Source: Eledone cirrhosa (Eukaryota). Taken from it: 64,000 nt of DNA. The position numbers and the translations under genes are program-made. The notes beneath the pieces are model-generated. The model was not told the DNA's origin. It ran no database searches and saw nothing but the letters and a program-made list of their open reading frames with translations. The stretch is taken from the NCBI GenBank assembly GCA_964016885.1, contig OZ024741.1:296422001-296486000 (forward strand), in the 5' to 3' direction. The stretch's first letter is position 1. Every line of letters starts with the position of its first letter. Below are positions 69 to 60,347 of the stretch, one piece after another.

Positions 69-1530
69 AGGAGGACATGATATGAAGGCTAAAAAAACAC
101 TTGTGGATAGTGCAGTTTTAAATCAACATATGAAAAGTAATTTTAGATTGATGTGTGATATTGGGAAAAATATTTTATTTAGAGAGGGGGGTGGAAAGGA
201 TGAAAAAAGGGGAGGAGATGAGAGTGAAGGTGGAGAGGAAGAGATGGGTGATAGAGAGAAAGAGATAGTTTTTATAACTGAGAAAAGATATATTGTTTTA
301 CATAGAGAGGTTGAAAATCGTTGGAAGATAATGTATAAATTAAAAGAATTTGAAAATTAACGAAGGGAAAAATATGTACGAAGAAGGAGAGGGAGTTAAT
401 ATGTATTGAGATTAAAAAGTTTGATGATAGAGAGAAAAAAATAATAATTGCGGATGAATATTCTAACGTCAAAAAAATTGTGTGTATGTTTACAAGTATT
501 ATGGAAATTTGAAAATTAACGAAGAGAAAAAATTATTAAGGTTTGTGTATTGAAGGATTTGAGAAAAATAATGTGAAGTTAAGGTTTCTATATTGAAGGA
601 ATTGATAATATGCGCGAAGAAAGAGTTAATATGTATTAAGAATGAGTTAGATGATTGGGAGAAAAAAATAATAAATTGATGAATAATCTAGCGTCAAAAA
701 ACAAATGTATATGTTACGAAGGAATTTACAAGGTGAAGATAGAGTGAGGGTAATGAGTAAACAGGTATTATAGAGTGTATAATACCCTTTGAAGTAAGGT
801 AGGAAGATGGGTATATTTTAAAAGAGGTGTATGTATATGTGCCTTTGAGAAAAGACTCTAAATTGATAAAGAATTGAATATTAGCTGTATACTTTGTGAA
901 AAGTCCTATGGAATTTATGCAGGCAGATAGAAAACAAATCTGTACGTCTATTTATTATAGAATCTAGATTAGAGATAATGGTAAATTTTTCATTTAGGCA
1001 GAGATTACAGATTTTAGATAGAGAGCTGTTCAAGTATGAAGACGCAGAAGAAACCTTCTTCCAAAAGATGGTATATTTAATGTTTTTGTCTTTCAAGGAC
1101 CATATGAGTTCTGAGAGAGCCGTGTTGGTTCTTTTAAGTTTGTATTTAAAAGATGAATGATGATTATAGAGACGAGCTTTAAAAGAGGTGGAAGTGGAGC
1201 CAAAATAGGTGAAGGAATTGGTGCTAGTTATAACTTTACATTCATAAATTAAGTTTTTATCAAGACAATGGTTGTTGAGAGGACATTTATTTTTAATGCG
1301 GCAGTTGCAATTAGAGAGATTATTAATGAGTGACCTAGTGTTATCTATAGAAGGAATTGGATTGGAGAAGTTGTTTGCGATAGGAATAATAGTTTCTTGA
1401 TTTAGAGTTGGATTATGAACATTTAGCGAAGTTGTGTTTGACGTTGTATTTGGGTTTACAGAAATTAGCCTAGGGTTTACAATGACGTCGGGAGTACTAT
1501 TACTGTTATTATGAAATTCAGTGTTGGAAA

Positions 1531-3626
1531 GAGCACCTTGTAAATCTCAAGAACACAATTTCTAACCTAAATTCCTCAAAAAATGTTTTAGTCCACTCTG
1601 ACAAAACCAATAACTTATATGGTATTTCCAAGGATAATTATAACAACCTTATCCTAAAGGAACTTAGGAAAAAGTATCGTAAAACCAACCATGAAAATTT
1701 AGAATACATAAACCTTGAAGCCTCTGAGATTATGTCAAAACTTGGCATTGAAAAAAGACCGAACCATTCCTCCCAAGAACTCCGAGGATAAATTTCAAGG
1801 ATCACAAAAACAATTTTCGCACTGAACTACCTGTTAGATTAATCGCCCCCTCTAAATCTGATCTGGGGGTTGTTAGTAAAGCCATCTTGGATAGAATTAT
1901 CCCACAGGTTAGTTCTAATTGCTCTTCTTTGAACCTAAATTTATGGTTTGGTACTTCTGAAGTGATTGGCTGGTTCAACAAATTGGATAATAAAAACAAA
2001 CTAAAATTTATTCAATTTGATATTGCCAGCTACTATTCCTCCATTTCGCCTTCACTTCTCAATAATGCTCTATCTTTCGCACTTAAATATTCTGACATCA
2101 CCACAGATGAACTTCACATCATCCTCACCGCACGTAAAACCATCCTAGAGTTCAACAACGAATATTGGACCAGAGCCGATACCTCTAACAACTTCGACAT
2201 CACAATGGGAGCATCCGATTCATCCCAATTGACTGATTTAATTTGTATCTTTATTTTGAACTCTTTGAGTCGGAAAATTCCTCAACTTCGCGGTGGAATT
2301 TATTGTGACGATGGACTCTTTACTATCTTAAATTGCAATATAGTTAACCTTAATATTATTAAGAACAATATACGTAATCTCTTTAACCAACATAACCTAA
2401 AAATTGAATTTGATAACAGTATCAAACTAGCTAATTTCTTGGATGTATCTCTTAATCTTGACACTGGCCTATATTACCCTTACCATAAAAACAATGAGAA
2501 CCTAAATTATGTTAACTTTAAATCTAACCATCCTACCAATATCAAGAATGCTATAGTTAGTAATATTGGAAAAAGAATATCTAACATATCTTCTAATAAA
2601 AACATATTTGATGCTAACGCCAATTACTATAATAACGCACTTTCTAAAGCCGGCTATCCTGATAAAATCAAATATAGTAAAGAAACAAATTCTAGAAAAA
2701 CTTACAGTAGAATAATTAATCATGATCATTCCAATAACTTTAATAAAAGACCTAGATACAAAAACATAATCTGGTATAATGCTCCTTTCTCCATCTCTAT
2801 TAATAACAATATTCCTAAATTATTCTTTAGTGCCTTAAATAAATGCTTCCCTCCCTCACATATCTATAGTAAAATATTTAACAAACACACCATAAAATTT
2901 TCATATTCTACATCCTCCAATATTTCCAACATTATCTCTAAACACAACAATAAAATACTAAATACTAAATCTCTTCCTTCCAACACTGAATTTCATAATA
3001 ACAGTAATAGTACTCCCGACGTCATTGTAAACCCTAGGCTAATTTCTGTAAACCCAAATACAACGTCAAACACAACTTCGCTAAATGTTCATGATCCAAC
3101 TCTAAATCAAGAAACTATTATTCCTATCGCAAACAACTTCTCCAATCCAATTCCTTCTATAGATAACACTAGGTCACTCATTAATAATCTCTCTAATTGC
3201 AACTGCCGCATTAAAAATAAATGTCCTCTCAACAACCATTGTCTTGATAAAAACTTAATTTATGAATGTAAAGTTATAACTAGCACCAATTCCTTCACCT
3301 ATTTTGGCTCCACTTCCACCTCTTTGAAAGCTCGTCTCTATAATCATCATTCATCTTTTAAATACAAACTTAAAAGAACCAACACGGCTCTCTCAGAACT
3401 CATATGGTCCTTGAAAGACAAAAACATTAAATATACCATCTTTTGGAAGAAGGTTTCTTCTGCGTCTTCATACTTGAACAGCTCTCTATCTAAAATCTGT
3501 AATCTCTGCCTAAATGAAAAATTTACTATTATCTCTAATCTAGATTCTATAATAAATAGACGTACAGATTTGTTTTCTATCTGCCTGCATAAATTCCATA
3601 GGACTTTTCACAAAGTATACAGCTAA
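1531..3626 (+). pseudogene. PLE reverse transcriptase / GIY-YIG endonuclease polyprotein, 5'-truncated and frameshifted before 1887
   Basis: Upstream frame reads VLVHSDKTNNLY. ORF 1887-3626 has FIQFDIASYYSSI, FDITMGASDS, GIYCDDGL, NFLDVSL, YVNFKSNHP, CNCRIKNKCPL and LIYECKV...TYFGST...KARLYNH (GIY-YIG), ending CNLCLNEK...CLH. Confidence 0.9.
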
Positions 3627-43953: not shown

Positions 43954-44871
43954 AAGGCAGGTTATACGATGCCTGCATACGAACAGCAATGCTGCATGGC
44001 AGTGAGACCTGGGCATTGTGTGCAGAGGATATACGCAGACTAGAGAGGAACGTAGCTTGCATGCTCCGCTAGATGTGCAATAGTAATATACGTGAACGGC
44101 AAAGCATAAACGAACTAAGGAAAAAATTAGAAATAAGAGGGATCAGATATTGTTTACTCGAGAGAAGGCTACGTTGGTACGGTCACGTGATGCGCATGAA
44201 AGACGACAGCTGTATAACAAAGTGCAGGGCAATAGAGATAGACGGTAGCCACGGAGTAGGCAGACCCAGAAAAACATGGGACGAGCTGATAAATTCCGAC
44301 CTCACACGCTTACACCTCTCCAAGACAATGTCACTGGACCGAGACCTTTGGCGATACTCAGTAATAGAGAAGACCCGCCTTACCTAAATACAAAGTAAAA
44401 CCTACTACAGTCAGTAGGCATCTCTATCAAAACACCCCACCGTCCCACCACCTCCACCCCATCCACACCGCCCCTTTCAATGTAAAGTTATGTTGGTCCC
44501 ACAACATCCAGGCCGAAACAAATGAGATCGTGTAGGTGTCACGACAAAAAAACACACAGTCCACGCTGTAAATGTGGCCGTGTAGGCAACACGGTAAAAA
44601 CCTCCCAGCCCCACACTGTAAATGTGGTTGGTGTTAGGAAGGGCATCCAGCTGTAGAAAACCCGCCAGACAGTCCACGCTGTAATGTGGCCGTGTAGGCA
44701 ACACGGTAAAAACCTCCCAGCCCCACACTGTAAATGTGGTTGGTGTTAGGAAGGGCATCCAACTGTAGAAAACCCGCCAGACAGTCCTATGCGAGCAAGA
44801 CAACCACTCTTGCCTCAAGTGGGAAAACCCCCGTCCAAACCCATGCAAGCGTGGAACACGGACGCTAAACC

Positions 44872-44914
<43 letters not shown>
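43954..44914 (+). mobile_element. 5'-truncated RTE LINE, same family as 52520-56293
   Basis: Closely similar to 55461-56293, with a ~120-bp 3' UTR duplication and (GAT)n tail. Confidence 0.92.
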
Positions 44915-44960
44915 ATGTGTATATATATATATGTGTATATATATATATATGTGTATATAT

Positions 44961-46103
44961 CTGGAAATCACCCTCTACACTAAAGTCCTAAACAAATTTG
45001 GAAACACCCTCCACTTACACATTGAAAGGAACTGGAAGCGATATCTAGATGACTGCTTCATCCTTTGGCACGAAAACATCGAAAAACTTAAAGAATTTCA
45101 CACCCTTATAAATGGGCTCAACACAAATATTAACTTCACGATGGAATACAGCCATCAACAACTCCCCTTCCTCGACATCCTCATTAAGATCCATAACAAA
45201 AAAATAGAAACAGACATATACTACAAGCCCACAGACTCCAAGCAATACCTCCCCTTCAACTCTTGCCACCCTAGACACGTTAAAATAAATATTCCCTACA
45301 ACTTAGCCAAGAGAATCTGTACTATAGTCTCCAATAAAAACATCTGCTACTTACGGCTACAAGAACTAAAGGACACACTCATAGGCAGAGACTACCCTGC
45401 TTCACTAATTGACAATGGAATCCAACGTGCCCTAAAACTCAGTACCCAGGACCTTAGACACCCTAAAGTAAATCAACCAAAACTAAAAGCTCTTCCATAC
45501 ATCTCCACACACAACCCCCTCAATAATGAGGCCTTTGACACCATCCTCCAGAACATCCCTGTATTGAAAAAGGACCATAGAATGAACCAAATTCTACGAA
45601 CACACGATATTATAAAGAGCAAAAGACAATTCAAGTCAATGAAAAACATCTTAACACATGCCAAAGTACTACCAACCACAACAACGAAACCCACAGTAAA
45701 AAAATGCGATAGACCCAACTGTGGCATTTGCATCAACCTAATAGAGGGTTCGGAATTCTATTTCAAAGATGGACAACGTTTTATAGTAAAACACAATTTC
45801 ACATGTATATCGGAAAATCTAATATATGTATTAACTTGTTCAGGTTGTCGAGAACAATACATAGGCCAGACCAAAAACAGCCTCCGCCAACGCATGACTG
45901 TCCATAGATCCCAAATTAAAATACGGGAATACAGGAAAATACCACTGAGTGAACACATTGATACCTGTGCCGCCCAAAATCACCCCAACTTCAGAATCTT
46001 TCCCCTCTACAAATTTAAAGATAATGCCACCCACACCCAGCGCATCAGCAAGGAATCTTACTTCATTAACAAATACGGACCCCGTCTAAACACTTCTCCC
46101 TAA
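44961..46103 (+). CDS. 5'-truncated Penelope-like (Neptune-type) RT C-terminus plus GIY-YIG endonuclease, open frame
   Basis: WKRYLDDCF, LPFLDILI, YYKPTDSKQYLPFNSCHP, CDRPNCGIC, NLIYVLTCSGC..QYIGQT...RMTVH, E.YFINKY.P.LN. The N-terminus of the track ORF is just microsatellite. Confidence 0.9.
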   Translation: MEITLYTKVLNKFGNTLHLHIERNWKRYLDDCFILWHENIEKLKEFHTLINGLNTNINFTMEYSHQQLPFLDILIKIHNKKIETDIYYKPTDSKQYLPFNSCHPRHVKINIPYNLAKRICTIVSNKNICYLRLQELKDTLIGRDYPASLIDNGIQRALKLSTQDLRHPKVNQPKLKALPYISTHNPLNNEAFDTILQNIPVLKKDHRMNQILRTHDIIKSKRQFKSMKNILTHAKVLPTTTTKPTVKKCDRPNCGICINLIEGSEFYFKDGQRFIVKHNFTCISENLIYVLTCSGCREQYIGQTKNSLRQRMTVHRSQIKIREYRKIPLSEHIDTCAAQNHPNFRIFPLYKFKDNATHTQRISKESYFINKYGPRLNTSP

Positions 46104-47040: not shown

Positions 47041-48226
<1,186 letters not shown>

Positions 48227-48408: not shown

Positions 48409-51367
48409 ATAAAAGCAAGGGAAGTTGCTTTTATCGAGAATCTAATTGTAATACGTGACGTATTCTATTCTATAGCGATTAGGTCTTCAAAATGTTTATT
48501 ATAAACATACAGAATATTTTCGAATATTCTATGTCTATATTCACATATATATCGCTATTTCAGAGCATTTATTCCAATTTCTAATTTCTGCCGGACCGGC
48601 AACCGCTCTTTCAAACCAGTTCCTGTACACAGCTAAGTATTCTATAAGTCTCTAGCTGTGTCATTCTCGATAAAAGCACTGGATATGTAGTCCTGATGAT
48701 TTCTAACAAGAATGAAACGCGTAGATTACTTCCCTTGCTTTTATCGAGAATCTAATTGTAATACGTGACGTATTCTATTCTATAGCGATTAGGTCTTCAA
48801 AATGTTTATTATAAACATACAGAATATTTTCGAATATTCTATGTCTATATTCACATATATATCGCTATTTCAGAGCATTTATTCCAATTTCTAATTTCTG
48901 CCGGACCGGCAACCGCTCTTTCAAACCAGTTCCTGTACACAGCTAAGTATTCTATAAGTCTCTAGCTGTGTCATTCTCGATAAAAGCACTGGATATGTAG
49001 TCCTGATGATTTCTAACAAGAATGAAACGCGTAGATTACTTCCCTTGCTTTTATCGAGAATCTAATTGTAATACGTGACGTATTCTATTCTATAGCGATT
49101 AGGTCTTCAAAATGTTTATTATAAACATACAGAATATTTTCGAATATTCTATGTCTATATTCACATATATATCGCTATTTCAGAGCATTTATTCCAATTT
49201 CTAATTTCTGCCGGACCGGCAACCGCTCTTTCAAACCAGTTCCTGTACACAGCTAAGTATTCTATAAGTCTCTAGCTGTGTCATTCTCGATAAAAGCACT
49301 GGATATGTAGTCCTGATGATTTCTAACAAGAATGAAACGCGTAGATTACTTCCCTTGCTTTTATCGAGAATCTAATTGTAATACGTGACGTATTCTATTC
49401 TATAGCGATTAGGTCTTCAAAATGTTTATTATAAACATACAGAATATTTTCGAATATTCTATGTCTATATTCACATATATATCGCTATTTCAGAGCATTT
49501 ATTCCAATTTCTAATTTCTGCCGGACCGGCAACCGCTCTTTCAAACCAGTTCCTGTACACAGCTAAGTATTCTATAAGTCTCTAGCTGTGTCATTCTCGA
49601 TAAAAGCACTGGATATGTAGTCCTGATGATTTCTAACAAGAATGAAACGCGTAGATTACTTCCCTTGCTTTTATCGAGAATCTAATTGTAATACGTGACG
49701 TATTCTATTCTATAGCGATTAGGTCTTCAAAATGTTTATTATAAACATACAGAATATTTTCGAATATTCTATGTCTATATTCACATATATATCGCTATTT
49801 CAGAGCATCTATTCCAATTTCTAATTTCTGCCGGACCGGCAACCGCTCTTTCAAACCAGTTCCTGTACACAGCTAAGTATTCTATAAGTCTCTAGCTGTG
49901 TCATTCTCGATAAAAGCACTGGATATGTAGTCCTGATGATTTCTAACAAGAATGAAACGCGTAGATTACTTCCCTTGATTTTATCGAGAATCTAATTGTA
50001 ATACGTGACGTATTCTATTCTATAGCGATTAGGTCTTCAAAATGTTTATTATAAACATACAGAATATTTTCGAATATTCTATGTCTATACTCACATATAT
50101 ATCGCTATTTCAGAGCATTTATTCCAATTTCTAATTTCTGCCGGACCGGCAACCGCTCTTTCAAACCAGTTCCTGTACACAGCTAAGTATTCTATAAGTC
50201 TCTAGCTGTGTCATTCTCGATAAAAGCACTGGATATGTAGTCCTGATGATTTCTAACAAGAATGAAACGCGTAGATTACTTCCCTTGCTTTTATCGAGAA
50301 TCTAATTGTAATACGTGACGTATTCTATTCTATAGCGATTAGGTCTTCAAAATGTTTATTATAAACATACAGAATATTTTCGAATATTCTATGTCTATAT
50401 TCACATATATATCGCTATTTCAGAGCATTTATTCCAATTTCTAATTTCTGCCGGACCGGCAACCGCTCTTTCAAACCAGTTCCTGTACACAGCTAAGTAT
50501 TCTATAAGTCTCTAGCTGTGTCATTCTCGATAAAAGCACTGGATATGTAGTCCTGATGATTTCTAACAAGAATGAAACGCGTAGATTACTTCCCTTGCTT
50601 TTATCGAGAATCTAATTGTAATACGTGACGTATTCTATTCTATAGCGATTAGGTCTTCAAAATGTTTATTATAAACATACAGAATATTTTCGAATATTCT
50701 ATGTCTATATTCACATATATATCGCTATTTCAGAGCATTTATTCCAATTTCTAATTTCTGCCGGACCGGCAACCGCTCTTTCAAACCAGTTCCTGTACAC
50801 AGCTAAGTATTCTATAAGTCTCTAGCTGTGTCATTCTCGATAAAAGCACTGGATATGTAGTCCTGATGATTTCTAACAAGAATGAAACGCGTAGATTACT
50901 TCCCTTGCTTTTATCGAGAATCTAATTGTAATACGTGACGTATTCTATTCTATAGCGATTAGGTCTTCAAAATGTTTATTATAAACATACAGAATATTTT
51001 CGAATATTCTATGTCTATATTCACATATATATCGCTATTTCAGAGCATTTATTCCAATTTCTAATTTCTGCCGGACCGGCAACCGCTCTTTCAAACCAGT
51101 TCCTGTACACAGCTAAGTATTCTATAAGTCTCTAGCTGTGTCATTCTCGATAAAAGCACTGGATATGTAGTCCTGATGATTTCTAACAAGAATGAAACGC
51201 GTAGATTACTTCCCTTGCTTTTATCGAGAATCTAATTGTAATACGTGACGTATTCTATTCTATAGCGATTAGGTCTTCAAAATGTTTATTATAAACATAC
51301 AGAATATTTTCGAATATTCTATGTCTATATTCACATATATATCGCTATTTCAGAGCATTTATTCCAA
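48409..51367 (+). mobile_element. Hammerhead-ribozyme tandem array 1 (retrozyme-like): ~9.5 x 310 bp plus a 17-bp inverted 5' stub
   Basis: Unit start TGCTTTTATCGAGAAT at 48426+310k. Only 3 substitutions seen (49809, 49978, 50090). Nine hammerhead cores. Confidence 0.92.
48687..48729 (+). ncRNA. Type I hammerhead ribozyme, first of 9 in array 1 (starts 48687+310k, last at 51167)
   Basis: Stem I GTAGTC/GATTAC, CTGATGA 48693-48699, stem II TTCT-AACA-AGAA, GAAA 48714-48717, palindromic stem III ACGCGT, predicted GUA cleavage after 48723. Confidence 0.88.
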
Positions 51368-51399
<32 letters not shown>

Positions 51400-52519: not shown

Positions 52520-55500
52520 CCCAACACCCCCACGCACCACCATTGCTATTACGTGGACCAATCATAAAACAGAGCCCCCACGCATCACCAGTATTATTAC
52601 GCGGACCAATCAGAAACCAGAGGCCTATACTATCGCTTGCCTGGTTGCCTTTCGATATATGATGGATGGATGGACTGCGGAATCCTGGAGAGTGGAGGTG
52701 AGAGAGAGAAAAATCTGGACGCTCAGCGACAATGCCAAAGATAAAGACAAATTCACCTCTTGGACGAGAATGCGAGCACTCCTCATTGTTTCGACCGCGG
52801 ACAGCTAACATAACCCCATCACCCCCCGCCCCCACCGCCCCAACCCCCAAACGCAATCCAAAACTTCAGAGTTGGTACCATAAATGTAGGCACCCTAAAG
52901 GGTCGCGCTAACGAGGTTGTAGAAATGCTTGAACGTAAGGAGGTCGATGTTTGTTGTATTCAAGAGACCAGGTGGAGGGGTGGGTCTGCTAGGTTCATTG
53001 AGGGTAAAAAACGATGTTATAAGCTTTTCTGGGTGGGAAACGACGATGGGCTGGGTGGAGTAGGAATCATGGTAGCAGAAAAGTGGGCAGATAAGATAAT
53101 AGACGTAAATAGAGTGAACGACAGAATAATTAAAATACGACTTGTCCTCAATAGAACTACGGTGACAGTAATATCTGCGTACGCACCCCAATCCGGACTG
53201 CCCGGCACTATAAAAGACAGATTCTATGAGACACTGATGCTAACTACCTCCCAAATATCCGACTATATAATTATCGCAGGCGACCTAAATGGTCACGTTG
53301 GACAACATTGTGACGGCTACGACGAAATCCATGGAGGCTATGGGTTTGGTACTAGAAATGAGGAAGGCTCCAGAATCCTGGAATTCTGTGATGCAAATAA
53401 CCTAACTATCTGTAACACTAACTTCAAAAAACGTGACAATCACCTGATCACCTATAGATCCGGGGAACACACAAGCCAGGTAGATTATATCCTTACCAGA
53501 AGACGTGACAGAGTGTCTGTTGTAAACACTAAATCCCTCCCCCATGAAGAATGCACCTCCCAACATAGACTGATAATTAGCGACCTCATAGTCAGGACGA
53601 GACGTACTTGACAACAGAAGAGGACTATCCTCAGGAGGAAAATATGGAAGCTAAAGGACCCCACAGCCAGGAATAAATTTCAAAGCATATTACTTGATGC
53701 TTTCGACAGTAAGGAAGAACATTTAGAGTCGGACAATATAGAGGGAGAGTGGGAATTTCTGAAAGCAAACCTGCTGTTGGCGACAGACGAAGTCTGTGGC
53801 TGGAGCAGGCCTGTAGGCAGGAGGAGAGTAACATGGTGGTGGAACAGTAAGGTGGAGGGGTCAATTAAGGCCAAAAAGCAGGCTTGGAAAGTATGGCGGG
53901 ATGGGGGAAGTAGAGAGGACTATCAAGTGGCCAGGAGGGAAGCTAGGAGACAAGTGTACTTAGCAAGAAGGGAAGCTGAGGAAAGAAAGTTCAAGCATGT
54001 TCTACAACGCGATGACCAAAAACGTGAGGTGTTCAGGATTGCTAGGCAATGCGTCAAGGAAAACCGTGATATTGTCGGGGAGAAGTGTGTACTAAACGAC
54101 GATGGCACACTTGCCATCACCGACGCTGATAAGAAGGTAGCTTGGAAGTGTCACTATGAAAGGCTACTAAATGAGGAGAATAATTGGGAGAAAGGCAGTC
54201 TCCCCCATATCGACCCAATAGAGGGACCAGCAGTGTTAGTCGAGGGGAGTATAATAAGTAAGGAAATCAAGGATATGTAGACGGGTAAGGCGGCTGGGCC
54301 TTCGGAAATAGTTGCTGAGATGCTGAAGGCATCTGGCACGGTGGGACACACCATGGTCACCCGCATAGTTAACCAAGTCGTACAGAATGGGGTTGTTCCG
54401 AAGGACTGGCATAGCAGCATCATCGTTAACTGTTATAAGGGTAAAGGAGACGCCCTAGATAGGAGTAACTATAGAGGCATTAAATTAATCGACCAGGTCA
54501 TGAAGGTCACGGAAAAAGTAATAGCGCAACTAATCAGAGAGAGAATTGATCTAGATGAAATGCAGTTCGGGTTTGTGTCAGGCAAAAGTACCACAGACGC
54601 TCTTTTCATAGTACGACAACTACAGGAGAAGTACCTAGCTAAAGGTAAACCCCTCTACTTAGCTTTTGTCGACTTGGAGAAAGCCTTCGACAGAGTCCCC
54701 CGCTCCATTATCTGGTGGGCTCTTAGAAAACTAGGCGTTGACGAATGGCTTGTGAGGGCTATACAAGCCATGTATAAAGAAACAGTCAGCAAGGTTAGAA
54801 TTAACAACGAATATAGTGAAGAGTTTAGCGTAAAAGTTGGCGTCCATCAGGGCTCTGTTCTCAGCCCACTACTATTTATTATTGCCCTTCAGGCTATAAC
54901 AGAGGAGTTCAAGACAGGCTGCCCATGGGAACTCCTATACGCAGACGACCTGACACTCATAGCGGAATCAATGGCCGAGCAAGAGAAGAAATTCCAAACA
55001 TGGAAGCACGGCCTAGAGTCAAAAGGACTTAAAATTAACCTGGCTAAGACCAAAGTACTAGTTTGTAGGAAAGAAAACAAGGCGGCGGTCCCTTCTGGGA
55101 AATGGTCGTGCTCGGTGTGTAGGAAAGGCGTAGGTAGAAACTCCATTTTATGTCCTAAATGCAAAGTATGGGTGCATAAAAGATGTAGTGGGATCACAGG
55201 TAAGCTAACTAAGAACATAGATTTTACATGTGGCCGGTGCTCTGGTGCAATAAGTAGCAGCAAGTGCCCACAAACTACTAGCTCTTTCAATTGCGCAGAG
55301 GGTTCTATAGAAATAGTGGACAGCTTCCGTTACCTGGGCGATAAAATCAGCAGTGGGGGAGGGTGCTCTGAAAGTACTGTAGCTAGAGTCAGAACTGGTT
55401 GGAAAAAGTTCAGAGAGCTTATACCACTATTAGCTGCTAAAGGGTTCTCACTAAAAATGAAAGGCAGGTTGTACGATGCCTGCATACGAACAGCAATGCT

Positions 55501-56293
55501 GCATGGCAGTGAGACCTGGGCATTGTGTGCAGAGGATATACGCAGACTAGAGAGGAATGAAGCTTGCATGCTCCGCTGGATGTGTAACAGTAATATACGT
55601 GAACGGCAAAGCATAAACGAACTAAGGAAAAAATTAGAGATAAGAGGGATCAGATGTTGTTTACTCGAGAGAAGGCTACGTTGGTATGGACACGTGATGC
55701 GCATGAAAGTCGATAGCTGTATAACAAAGTGCAGGGCAATAAAGATAGACGGTAGTCACGGAATAGGCAGACCTAGAAAAACCTGGGACGAGCTGATAAA
55801 CTCCGACATCACACACTTACACCTCTCCAAGACAATGTCACTGGACCGAGACCTTTGGCGGTACTCAGTAACAGAGAAGACCCGCCTTACCTAAATATAT
55901 AGTAAAACCTACTCCAGCCAGTAGGCATCTCTAACAAAATACACCCCGTCCCACCACCCCCACCCCCACCCCATCCACACCACCCCGTTCTATGTAAAGT
56001 TATGTTGGTGCCGCGCCATCGAGGCCGAAACAAATGAGATCGTGTAGGTGTCACGACAAAAAAACACACAGTCCACGCTGTAATGTGGCCGTGTAGGCAA
56101 CACGGTAAAAACCTCCCAGACCCACACTGTAAATGTGGTTGGTGTTAGGAAGGGCATCCAACTGTAGAAAACCTGCCAGACAGTCCTATGCGAGCAAGAC
56201 AATCACTCTTGCCTCAAGTGGGACTACCCCCGTCCAAACCCATGCAAGCGTGGAACACGGATGTTAAACGTTGATGATGATGATGATGATGAT
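52520..56293 (+). mobile_element. Near full-length RTE LINE (5' boundary approximate)
   Basis: APE and RT in one frame, 3' UTR, (GAT)n tail ending at 56293. Confidence 0.93.
52862..55894 (+). pseudogene. RTE ORF (AP endonuclease, RT, PHD-type finger) with two in-frame stops
   Basis: Track ORFs 52925, 53777 and 54320 share a frame, split by TGA 53609 and TAG 54278. Motifs GTINVGTL, IQETRW, SAYAP, GDLNGHVG, SQHRL, QFGF, FVDLEKAFD, QGSVLSP, LLYADD, FRYLG. Confidence 0.93.
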
Positions 56294-56902: not shown

Positions 56903-57689
56903 AGAAATTGGAATAAATGCTCTGAAATAGCGATATATATGTGAATATAGACATAGAATATTCGAAAATATTCTGTATGTTTATAATAAACATTTTGAAG
57001 ACCTAATCGCTATAGAATAGAATACGTCACGTATTACAATTAGATTCTCGATAAAAGCAAGGGAAGTAATCTACGCGTTTCATTCTTGTTAGAAATCATC
57101 AGGACTACATATCCAGTGCTTTTATCGAGAATGACACAGCTAGAGACTTATAGAATACTTAGCTGTGTACAGGAACTGGTTTGAAAGAGCGGTTGCCGGT
57201 CCGGCAGAAATTAGAAATTGGAATAAATGCTCTGAAATAGCGATATATATGTGAATATAGACATAGAATATTCGAAAATATTCTGTATGTTTATAATAAA
57301 CATTTTGAAGACCTAATCGCTATAGAATAGAATACGTCACGTATTACAATTAGATTCTCGATAAAAGCAAGGGAAGTAATCTACGCGTTTCATTCTTGTT
57401 AGAAATCATCAGGACTACATATCCAGTGCTTTTATCGAGAATGACACAGCTAGAGACTTATAGAATACTTAGCTGTGTACAGGAACTGGTTTGAAAGAGC
57501 GGTTGCCGGTCCGGCAGAAATTAGAAATTGGAATAAATGCTCTGAAATAGCGATATATATGTGAATATAGACATAGAATATTCGAAAATATTCTGTATGT
57601 TTATAATAAACATTTTGAAGACCTAATCGCTATAGAATAGAATACGTCACGTATTACAATTAGATTCTCGATAAAAGCAAGGGAAGTAA
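56903..57689 (-). mobile_element. Hammerhead array 2, inverted arm: ~2.5 x 310 bp, ribozymes at 57066-57108 and 57376-57418
   Basis: Exact reverse complement of the 310-bp unit. Confidence 0.92.
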
Positions 57690-60347
57690 AAAGCACTGGA
57701 TATGTAGTCCTGATGATTTCTAACAAGAATGAAACGCGTAGATTACTTCCCTTGCTTTTATCGAGAATCTAATTGTAATACGTGACGTATTCTATTCTAT
57801 AGCGATTAGGTCTTCAAAATGTTTATTATAAACATACAGAATATTTTCGAATATTCTATGTCTATATTCACATATATATCGCTATTTCAGAGCATTTATT
57901 CCAATTTCTAATTTCTGCCGGACCGGCAACCGCTCTTTCAAACCAGTTCCTGTACACAGCTAAGTATTCTATAAGTCTCTAGCTGTGTCATTCTCGATAA
58001 AAGCACTGGATATGTAGTCCTGATGATTTCTAACAAGAATGAAACGCGTAGATTACTTCCCTTGCTTTTATCGAGAATCTAATTGTAATACGTGACGTAT
58101 TCTATTCTATAGCGATTAGGTCTTCAAAATGTTTATTATAAACATACAGAATATTTTCGAATATTCTATGTCTATATTCACATATATATCGCTATTTCAG
58201 AGCATTTATTCCAATTTCTAATTTCTGCCGGACCGGCAACCGCTCTTTCAAACCAGTTCCTGTACACAGCTAAGTATTCTATAAGTCTCTAGCTGTGTCA
58301 TTCTCGATAAAAGCACTGGATATGTAGTCCTGATGATTTCTAACAAGAATGAAACGCGTAGATTACTTCCCTTGCTTTTATCGAGAATCTAATTGTAATA
58401 CGTGACGTATTCTATTCTATAGCGATTAGGTCTTCAAAATGTTTATTATAAACATACAGAATATTTTCGAATATTCTATGTCTATATTCACATATATATC
58501 GCTATTTCAGAGCATTTATTCCAATTTCTAATTTCTGCCGGACCGGCAACCGCTCTTTCAAACCAGTTCCTGTACACAGCTAAGTATTCTATAAGTCTCT
58601 AGCTGTGTCATTCTCGATAAAAGCACTGGATATGTAGTCCTGATGATTTCTAACAAGAATGAAACGCGTAGATTACTTCCCTTGCTTTTATCGAGAATCT
58701 AATTGTAATACGTGACGTATTCTATTCTATAGCGATTAGGTCTTCAAAATGTTTATTATAAACATACAGAATATTTTCGAATATTCTATGTCTATATTCA
58801 CATATATATCGCTATTTCAGAGCATTTATTCCAATTTCTAATTTCTGCCGGACCGGCAACCGCTCTTTCAAACCAGTTCCTGTACACAGCTAAGTATTCT
58901 ATAAGTCTCTAGCTGTGTCATTCTCGATAAAAGCACTGGATATGTAGTCCTGATGATTTCTAACAAGAATGAAACGCGTAGATTACTTCCCTTGCTTTTA
59001 TCGAGAATCTAATTGTAATACGTGACGTATTCTATTCTATAGCGATTAGGTCTTCAAAATGTTTATTATAAACATACAGAATATTTTCGAATATTCTATG
59101 TCTATATTCACATATATATCGCTATTTCAGAGCATTTATTCCAATTTCTAATTTCTGCCGGACCGGCAACCGCTCTTTCAAACCAGTTCCTGTACACAGC
59201 TAAGTATTCTATAAGTCTCTAGCTGTGTCATTCTCGATAAAAGCACTGGATATGTAGTCCTGATGATTTCTAACAAGAATGAAACGCGTAGATTACTTCC
59301 CTTGCTTTTATCGAGAATCTAATTGTAATACGTGACGTATTCTATTCTATAGCGATTAGGTCTTCAAAATGTTTATTATAAACATACAGAATATTTTCGA
59401 ATATTCTATGTCTATATTCACATATATATCGCTATTTCAGAGCATTTATTCCAATTTCTAATTTCTGCCGGACCGGCAACCGCTCTTTCAAACCAGTTCC
59501 TGTACACAGCTAAGTATTCTATAAGTCTCTAGCTGTGTCATTCTCGATAAAAGCACTGGATATGTAGTCCTGATGATTTCTAACAAGAATGAAACGCGTA
59601 GATTACTTCCCTTGCTTTTATCGAGAATCTAATTGTAATACGTGACGTATTCTATTCTATAGCGATTAGGTCTTCAAAATGTTTATTATAAACATACAGA
59701 ATATTTTCGAATATTCTATGTCTATATTCACATATATATCGCTATTTCAGAGCATTTATTCCAATTTCTAATTTCTGCCGGACCGGCAACCGCTCTTTCA
59801 AACCAGTTCCTGTACACAGCTAAGTATTCTATAAGTCTCTAGCTGTGTCATTCTCGATAAAAGCACTGGATATGTAGTCCTGATGATTTCTAACAAGAAT
59901 GAAACGCGTAGATTACTTCCCTTGCTTTTATCGAGAATCTAATTGTAATACGTGACGTATTCTATTCTATAGCGATTAGGTCTTCAAAATGTTTATTATA
60001 AACATACAGAATATTTTCGAATATTCTATGTCTATATTCACATATATATCGCTATTTCAGAGCATTTATTCCAATTTCTAATTTCTGCCGGACCGGCAAC
60101 CGCTCTTTCAAACCAGTTCCTGTACACAGCTAAGTATTCTATAAGTCTCTAGCTGTGTCATTCTCGATAAAAGCACTGGATATGTAGTCCTGATGATTTC
60201 TAACAAGAATGAAACGCGTAGATTACTTCCCTTGCTTTTATCGAGAATCTAATTGTAATACGTGACGTATTCTATTCTATAGCGATTAGGTCTTCAAAAT
60301 GTTTATTATAAACATACAGAATATTTTCGAATATTCTATGTCTATAT
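57689..60347 (+). mobile_element. Hammerhead array 2, forward arm: ~8.6 x 310 bp, 9 ribozymes (57704+310k, last at 60184)
   Basis: Same unit as array 1; no differences seen by eye. Confidence 0.92.

Follow-up and report, generated by a model that had tools for sequence, protein, structure and literature searches.

A 310-nt hammerhead retrozyme family in Eledone cirrhosa with a palindromic helix III and a covarying extended helix I

A hammerhead-like motif at positions 48663..48751 of the 64,000-nt stretch of Eledone cirrhosa DNA analysed here (the window) raises the question of how a ribozyme whose self-complementary helix III is too short for a stable monomer could work, and what its unusually long helix I contributes. 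A sequence-only reading of the locus had described a perfect 16-bp helix, an ACGCGT palindrome as stem III and a U-U juxtaposition at the base of stem II, and sequence, predicted fold and family variants bear out the presence of all three. Positions 48663-48678 are the exact reverse complement of 48736-48751 (16 bp); when a 310-nt stretch was shuffled 2000 times with dinucleotides preserved, no perfect inverted repeat exceeded 13 bp, so that 16 bp was reached in 0 of 2000. The 106-nt ribozyme region folds with a z-score of -5.3, its local hairpin being predicted at -32 kcal/mol. The core CUGAUGA lies at 48693-48699, GAA at 48714-48716 and ACGCGU at 48717-48722; the triplet is GUA, with a predicted cut after 48723, and unit positions are numbered from the base 3' of this cut (48724 = 1). 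U48700 stands opposite U48713 at the base of helix II, a register supported by the family variants A and G at 48700, both of which pair with U48713. The earlier description of stem I, with a TAT/T loop, GGA/TCC and the 16-bp helix, is right in these elements but omitted a 2x2 CU/CU loop that separates GGA/UCC from the 16-bp helix. Likewise, the 2-nt loop proposed for monomeric stem III is possible but not the sole form, the alternative being a single A-U pair that closes a CGCG tetraloop. The ribozyme is made up as follows.

48663..48678, + strand: 5' arm of the clamp (distal helix I, 16 bp), from exact complementarity to 48736-48751 and covariation
48679..48686, + strand: 5' side of the 2x2 loop, GGA/UCC helix and UAU side of the internal loop, from predicted fold and sequence
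48687..48692, + strand: 5' strand of proximal helix I, 6 bp with one G-U, from predicted folds
48693..48699, + strand: catalytic core C3-A9, in which position 7 alone has fixed family variants, from mapped insertions
48700..48713, + strand: helix II with U10.1-U11.1 at its base (A-U in 22% of copies), from copy counts and mapped insertions
48714..48723, + strand: G12-A14, palindromic helix III ACGCGU and A17, with the predicted cut after 48723, from sequence and the palindrome in 17,897/18,017 copies
48724..48751, + strand: 3' strand of helix I, bulged U, UCC and 3' arm of the clamp, at the predicted 5' end of the monomer, from the inverted repeat and folds

A young non-LTR retrozyme of 310 nt carries this motif as its type I hammerhead. 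It has the CUGANGA, GAAA and UH core elements, the three helices and the open helix I of the hammerhead class, and helices I-III together with the 3-8 pair covary among relatives in a 24-row alignment. An Rfam search returned nothing at gathering score, and below it only Hammerhead_HH9 came up (19.2 bits, E 0.12, against a cut-off of 52); since curated models cover particular subfamilies, such a score does not exclude the class. Two arrays have one hammerhead in every 310-nt unit, and the exact core is present in 20 copies in the window (18 plus, 2 minus), this motif among them. In the genome (G000) a pattern search recovers the exact core 4584 times, and a pattern allowing common variants yields 18,017 copies, or some 18,000 ribozymes; no family ribozyme was detected on the opposite strand. 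The units are tandem, within 150-450 bp, low in GC and non-coding, each with one type I hammerhead, and they form dispersed multi-copy insertions. Folded as a circle, the 310-nt unit has a z-score of -4.1, with 0 of 60 shuffles equally stable. The family is represented in the window by the following features.

48724..49033, + strand: 310-nt monomer from cut site to cut site, the predicted circular RNA, from unit repeats and the circular fold
48409..51368, + strand: array 1, a 17-nt inverted stub and 9.5 sense units flanked by (TA)n runs, from unit mapping
56903..60347, both orientations: array 2, 2.5 antisense units head-to-head with 8.6 sense units, flanked by (TA)n runs, from unit mapping
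48848..48892, + strand: preferred outer insertion ends (unit ~125-139 and 165-169), the inferred starts of reverse transcription ~35 nt apart, from mapped insertions

In composition this retrozyme resembles the metazoan non-LTR retrozymes, which are tandem, non-coding units of 150-450 bp with less than 50% GC, carry one type I hammerhead per unit and no LTR, and co-occur with Penelope-like elements (PLEs) (Cervera and de la Pena 2020, PMC7229834). It is a new family within this known animal class, and no paper with an octopus hammerhead ribozyme or a cephalopod retrozyme family like it in title or abstract was found. In most invertebrate retrozymes helix III is stable and the monomer is able to cleave (PMC7761336), whereas the 310-nt family has the weak helix III of the amphibian type. 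Axolotl HHR_Amex1 similarly has one base pair and a palindromic tetraloop, and cleaves to 6% as a monomer and much more as a dimer, while HHR_Amex2, an active motif, has the same U-U at the base of helix II and also cleaves better as a dimer (PMC7229834). Compared with these, the 310-nt ribozyme combines both weakening features and adds a 16-bp distal helix, similar long helices of which may be found in the supplements of PMC7229834. A short palindromic helix III with a dimer fold is likewise described for newt satellite 2, ASBVd and dimeric PLE hammerheads (PMC4209133, PMC6765202, PMC3088659, PMC6155905); in contrast to the minimal PLE hammerhead, the present ribozyme has a full 6-bp helix I, an internal loop and distal helices. 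A sister family, older and ~320 nt long (L165-L204, e.g., L171:1383-1784; 1639 pattern matches), is ~75-80% identical over positions 59-235 and has a U3-A8 core, a type already in print (PMC3088659), a G10.1-C11.1 pair and a longer palindromic helix III. Further hammerhead-like motifs were seen at L031:5977 (-), L038:3270-3354 and L034:8940 (+), and the unrelated hammerheads in L031 and L038 likewise pair U-U with a 6-nt palindromic helix III.

To follow the family through its insertions, we mapped 106 records and then 61 as a replicate, most loci being picked by pattern at one outer end. L038 and L095 (no array; duplicate), records below 100 nt and units with more than 8 differences were left out, as were insertions with less than 3-fold coverage (17/106 and 6/61), which gives 89 and 55 analysed insertions, or 144 in total; mutation spectra exclude indels and nine common lineage markers. 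The centre of the palindrome is unchanged in 17,897 of the 18,017 copies. Fixed changes in the core or palindrome number 0 in 89 insertions and 0 in 55, with position 7, 10.1 and loop II varying, and post-insertion changes in the same elements do occur (6 and 3 in the two sets). As the young family holds only 36 distinct inherited variants over 310 positions, conservation of the core within it is by itself weak evidence. In the sister family helix III spans 9-12 nt; it is perfectly palindromic in 15 of the 24 rows of the alignment and off by no more than one mismatch in 23, the self-complementarity persisting across a number of distinct sequences, with one double change falling in the would-be loop. 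Together with the copy counts, the alignment supports selection on helix III self-complementarity.

When two neighbouring ribozymes are folded without constraint, the outcome is a swapped double hammerhead (-109.9 vs. -101.8 kcal/mol, p 0.998), predicted to be 6-8 kcal/mol better than two local hairpins. In this predicted structure the strands of helix I exchange partners, and the ends of the middle monomer become paired with each other. The claim that a palindromic stem III leads to a dimer fold is supported both by the retention of the palindrome and by the double hammerhead being the most stable predicted fold of two neighbours. However, the antisense control favours the swapped fold just as strongly (p 0.999, in three antisense two-ribozyme folds), so that any repeated hairpin with a palindrome in it would give this fold, and its preference is a sign that the fold is possible but no evidence that it functions. 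Forster 1988 and Luense 2017 are reportedly sources on such double or dimeric hammerheads. That multimers cleave while monomer circles do not, as also proposed for this locus, had already been stated in PMC4209133 and PMC6765202, and the label "obligate" is too strong, the same helix III geometry giving some monomer cleavage in the axolotl (PMC7229834). The palindrome and the long closing helix I together likely let neighbouring copies cut as a pair, releasing an RNA circle. For Xenopus retrozyme dimers, 8 of 9 are reported without cleavage in vitro (bioRxiv 10.64898/2026.07.22.740005). The local hairpin, which would fold before the swapped form, may trap the ribozyme, and this also speaks against paired cutting.

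Could the ribozyme instead cut adequately as a monomer? On this view loop II would be the docking site of the internal loop and extended helix I, which would rescue the weak helix III, with the clamp stabilizing the fold rather than serving ligation. Newt monomer ribozymes do cleave when given internally looped helix I extensions (PMC6155905), the GGA/UCC helix, the internal loop and the terminal A of loop II recur in the sister family, and the local hairpin would be the first to form. Against this, the A15.1-U16.1 pair has a probability of 0.0 in the monomer ensemble, the palindromy of the would-be loop, needless for a monomer, is kept through double changes, and the axolotl motif of the same geometry cleaves far more as a dimer (PMC7229834). 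We consider monomer cutting unlikely as the main mode, and paired cutting the better explanation.

The clamp can be examined independently of helix III. Of the 16 clamp pairs, 8 differ in both bases when the window is compared with sister row L187, and none is broken. Across all 24 rows, 9/16 pairs show a double change and 93.4% of cells are paired, against 31-48% when the whole structure is slid by 1-3 columns, these counts being inflated by related rows, with the young family contributing one row of 24. Changes in helix I inherited among the mapped insertions keep pairing in 11/11 and 6/7 cases (some variants being common to the two sets), whereas those that arose after insertion do so in 1/18 and 0/7. 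The clamp is a real covarying RNA helix, apparently maintained by selection. In the predicted fold of both linear monomer and circle it pairs positions 1-28 with 250-279. This gives partial support to the proposal that the clamp holds the cut ends for ligation: it joins both ends of the monomer in the predicted fold, but the hairpin formed first would tie neighbouring monomers instead. Circularization would consequently need a swap of helix I, because the first hairpin to form during transcription links each monomer to its neighbour. Ligation itself may depend on the host, since axolotl retrozyme monomers are joined to >80% by RtcB and to 3% by the ribozyme (PMC7229834). In the text passages of the literature searched, no description of a double hammerhead that closes the monomer in advance was found.

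The U-U opposition, in contrast, is not supported as a design feature. In place of the canonical G10.1-C11.1 pair (PMC4209133), the family has mostly U-U, replaced by A-U in 3938 of 17,897 copies (22%); A-U is fixed in 22/89 and 11/55 insertions and G-U in one. In the 24-row alignment the same position is G-C in 18 rows, A-U in 3, G-U in 1 and unpaired in 2. U-U is common to the retrozyme and an autonomous PLE family of the same genome with 4001 pattern matches, an end fragment of which lies in the window.

47560..48050, - strand: end fragment of an autonomous Penelope-like element with a hammerhead core at 47620 that has the same core, helix II and U-U, from pattern and alignment

This PLE family has a long ORF with RT- and GIY-YIG-like motifs and a 4-bp helix III (example copy, L156:4965-7320, - strand). 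Pfam recognizes neither the L156 protein nor that at window 1752-3623; BLASTP links the former (21% identity, E 1e-8) to a family with a GIY-YIG match. The retrozyme is 89% identical to it over the 28 nt of core and helix II, and shares no body homology with any of three PLE families. The core of the young retrozyme may stem from the lineage with 4001 matches, and U-U is probably tolerated and inherited with a Penelope-type core rather than tuned. A link between retrozymes and PLEs has been argued before (bioRxiv 10.64898/2026.07.22.740005).

How does the family enter the genome? Head-to-head pairs make up 97/106 and 56/61 records, with outer ends at ~165 and ~130 in 83/91 and 47/52 uncut two-arm insertions. 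The same two ends recur in 9 of 10 two-arm insertions picked without an end criterion, and in several copies of the sister family. Both arms hold at least 2 units in 61 of the 97 head-to-head insertions. A (TA)-rich flank is present at 180/189 ends, most loci having been selected by such an end, and at least 1278 dispersed ends join one unit position to (TA)n. Two start sites, an inverted arm and (TA)n targets are the published signature of Penelope insertion (PMC11167929, PMC8557442), and the inverted arm, ends 30-40 nt apart and microsatellite target of the retrozyme parallel the inverted 5'-truncated arm, the 30-40-nt tail between starts and the (TA)n of EN+ PLEs (PMC8557442, PMC11167929). 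Unlike these, the retrozyme has no ORF and both of its arms are often multi-unit. A head-to-head layout with two fixed ends was not found among the metazoan retrozymes in the parts of PMC7229834 covered here. Array 1 departs from the family rule: its inverted arm (48409-48425) is a 17-nt stub from unit position 21, not near 130. As to the mobilizing enzyme, the PLE with the near-identical core is not supported, its ends and flanks being different: the ends fall at +21 and +89 relative to the cut, which makes a tail of 68 nt where 30-40 nt is the published length. Two further PLE families considered have no body sequence in common with the retrozyme.

The composition of the arms bears on the template. 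Both carry the same haplotype in 67/69 and 39/39 informative insertions (chance ~0.10), and therefore one RNA molecule, or one source locus, fed both. Among the 89 insertions, 26 of 35 haplotypes are singletons fixed across their own units. In insertion L275 (G000:C1:380304700-380311700), 14 identical A>G changes are present in 5/5 full units on both arms, and the ribozyme module, which has 28 adenosines, is free of them (p 0.004). L275 is likely a hyper-edited circle copied into DNA, that is, one edited monomer read repeatedly, which is most simply a circle. Overall, a monomer-length template copied repeatedly is supported, and it was probably circular. In L063 the arms are out of register and one A>G change appears part-way along one arm and throughout the other, which might reflect editing or a template switch during copying.

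Changes of this type are frequent in the family. Inherited changes are A>G in 15/30 and 10/18 events, as opposed to 10/121 and 4/64 after insertion, and positions 20, 259 and 276 were changed more than once, on different backgrounds. Part of the excess comes from selection for changes that still allow G-U pairing; nevertheless, helix I showed no C>T among its inherited changes, which makes A-to-I editing the more probable origin. In PMC7229834 editing is named merely as a possibility, and no paper on an A>G excess among inherited retrozyme changes was found in the literature searched.

A different view of the same insertions is that the ribozyme rarely cuts in vivo, most insertions deriving from uncut linear multimers and circles being occasional bottlenecks. 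Inner arm ends show no cleavage footprint: 8/194 lie within 6 nt of the cut (8.1 expected) in one set and 2/112 (4.7 expected) in the other, the remainder being scattered. Mixed units follow the same order on both arms of L092, where both change haplotype after two units, and of L071, as expected of an uncut multimer template. Moreover, in the anole PLE unprocessed RNA is the main substrate and hammerhead cleavage is not needed (PMC11167929). Yet each singleton haplotype fixed across its units requires a one-unit bottleneck, and the uniform A>G units of L275 and the out-of-register arms of L063 also speak against it; on balance rare cutting seems improbable, slightly more so than monomer cutting. 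As for satellite DNA amplified by unequal crossing-over, with the ribozyme-like fold as a relic, the tandem layout, a few locally duplicated variants (L035, L077) and a mention of unequal crossing-over for retrozyme arrays (bioRxiv 10.64898/2026.07.22.740005) are outweighed by the dispersed ends at one unit position on (TA)n, the head-to-head arms with two fixed ends, the strand-specific A>G excess among inherited changes and the covariation, and this idea, largely refuted by the insertion layout, is very improbable. Three further candidates concerning unit and arm ends were set aside. Run-off at a cleaved end was suggested by both inner junctions of the window, 3-5 nt from the cut, but only 10/306 inner ends behave in this way (12.8 expected); a cluster of inner ends at unit 19-22 and 256-260 was treated as a mapping artefact of the inverted repeat; and one-base insertions near the cut, considered as per-unit ligation scars, are fixed lineage markers.

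The reading that we favour, and hold to be probable, is that the palindrome makes tandem neighbours cut best as a double hammerhead, that the 25-bp helix I closes the monomer, and that a PLE-like enzyme copies the resulting circle into (TA)n. In detail, neighbouring copies in a tandem transcript would likely cut as a pair by virtue of helix III; the helix I strands are predicted to swap partners, such that the 5' end of the middle monomer pairs with its own 3' region; and the cut-out monomer, left self-closed by the extended helix I of 25 bp, would be circularized by a host ligase. A Penelope-like enzyme would then likely copy the circle, in successive rounds, into (TA)n. Transcription, cleavage, ligation by RtcB and a low but non-zero monomer activity are assumed from other retrozymes. 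A closed circle, with one ribozyme that could hardly intertwine with that of another circle, would presumably be cut slowly. A bolder version, which we put forward tentatively and regard as doubtful, is a one-way circularization switch, in which cutting occurs only after the whole 25-bp helix I has swapped and topology keeps the sealed circle from a second swap. If so, every cut would hand a self-closed monomer to the ligase, and it would be explained how animal retrozyme circles escape self-cutting with a ribozyme unblocked by pairing, a question left open in PMC7229834.

Both the class and the dimer idea were known before; what the family adds is a natural mutational screen. Its 144 insertions separate changes passed on through RNA from later ones, and thereby the constrained parts (core, palindrome and clamp pairing) from the free ones (U-U, position 7 and loop II). 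It also offers a compact test system for the origin of retrozyme circles and their escape from cutting, and for the way in which tandem and inverted insertions are made by Penelope-like enzymes. Were the swap model true, it would supply a simple design rule for making circular RNA.

Several other elements accompany the arrays. An inverted pair of PLEs occupies the start of the window (881-3626), and a young PLE family with a GIY-YIG match and many intact 784-aa copies is represented at 44769-46103 (+). Between the two arrays lies a broken LINE (52814-55894, +) with an endonuclease-like region, an RT and a PHD finger. Elsewhere in the genome, at G000:C1:83679791-83691708, the hammerhead-bearing PLE end is found as twelve tandem copies ~1.08 kb apart.
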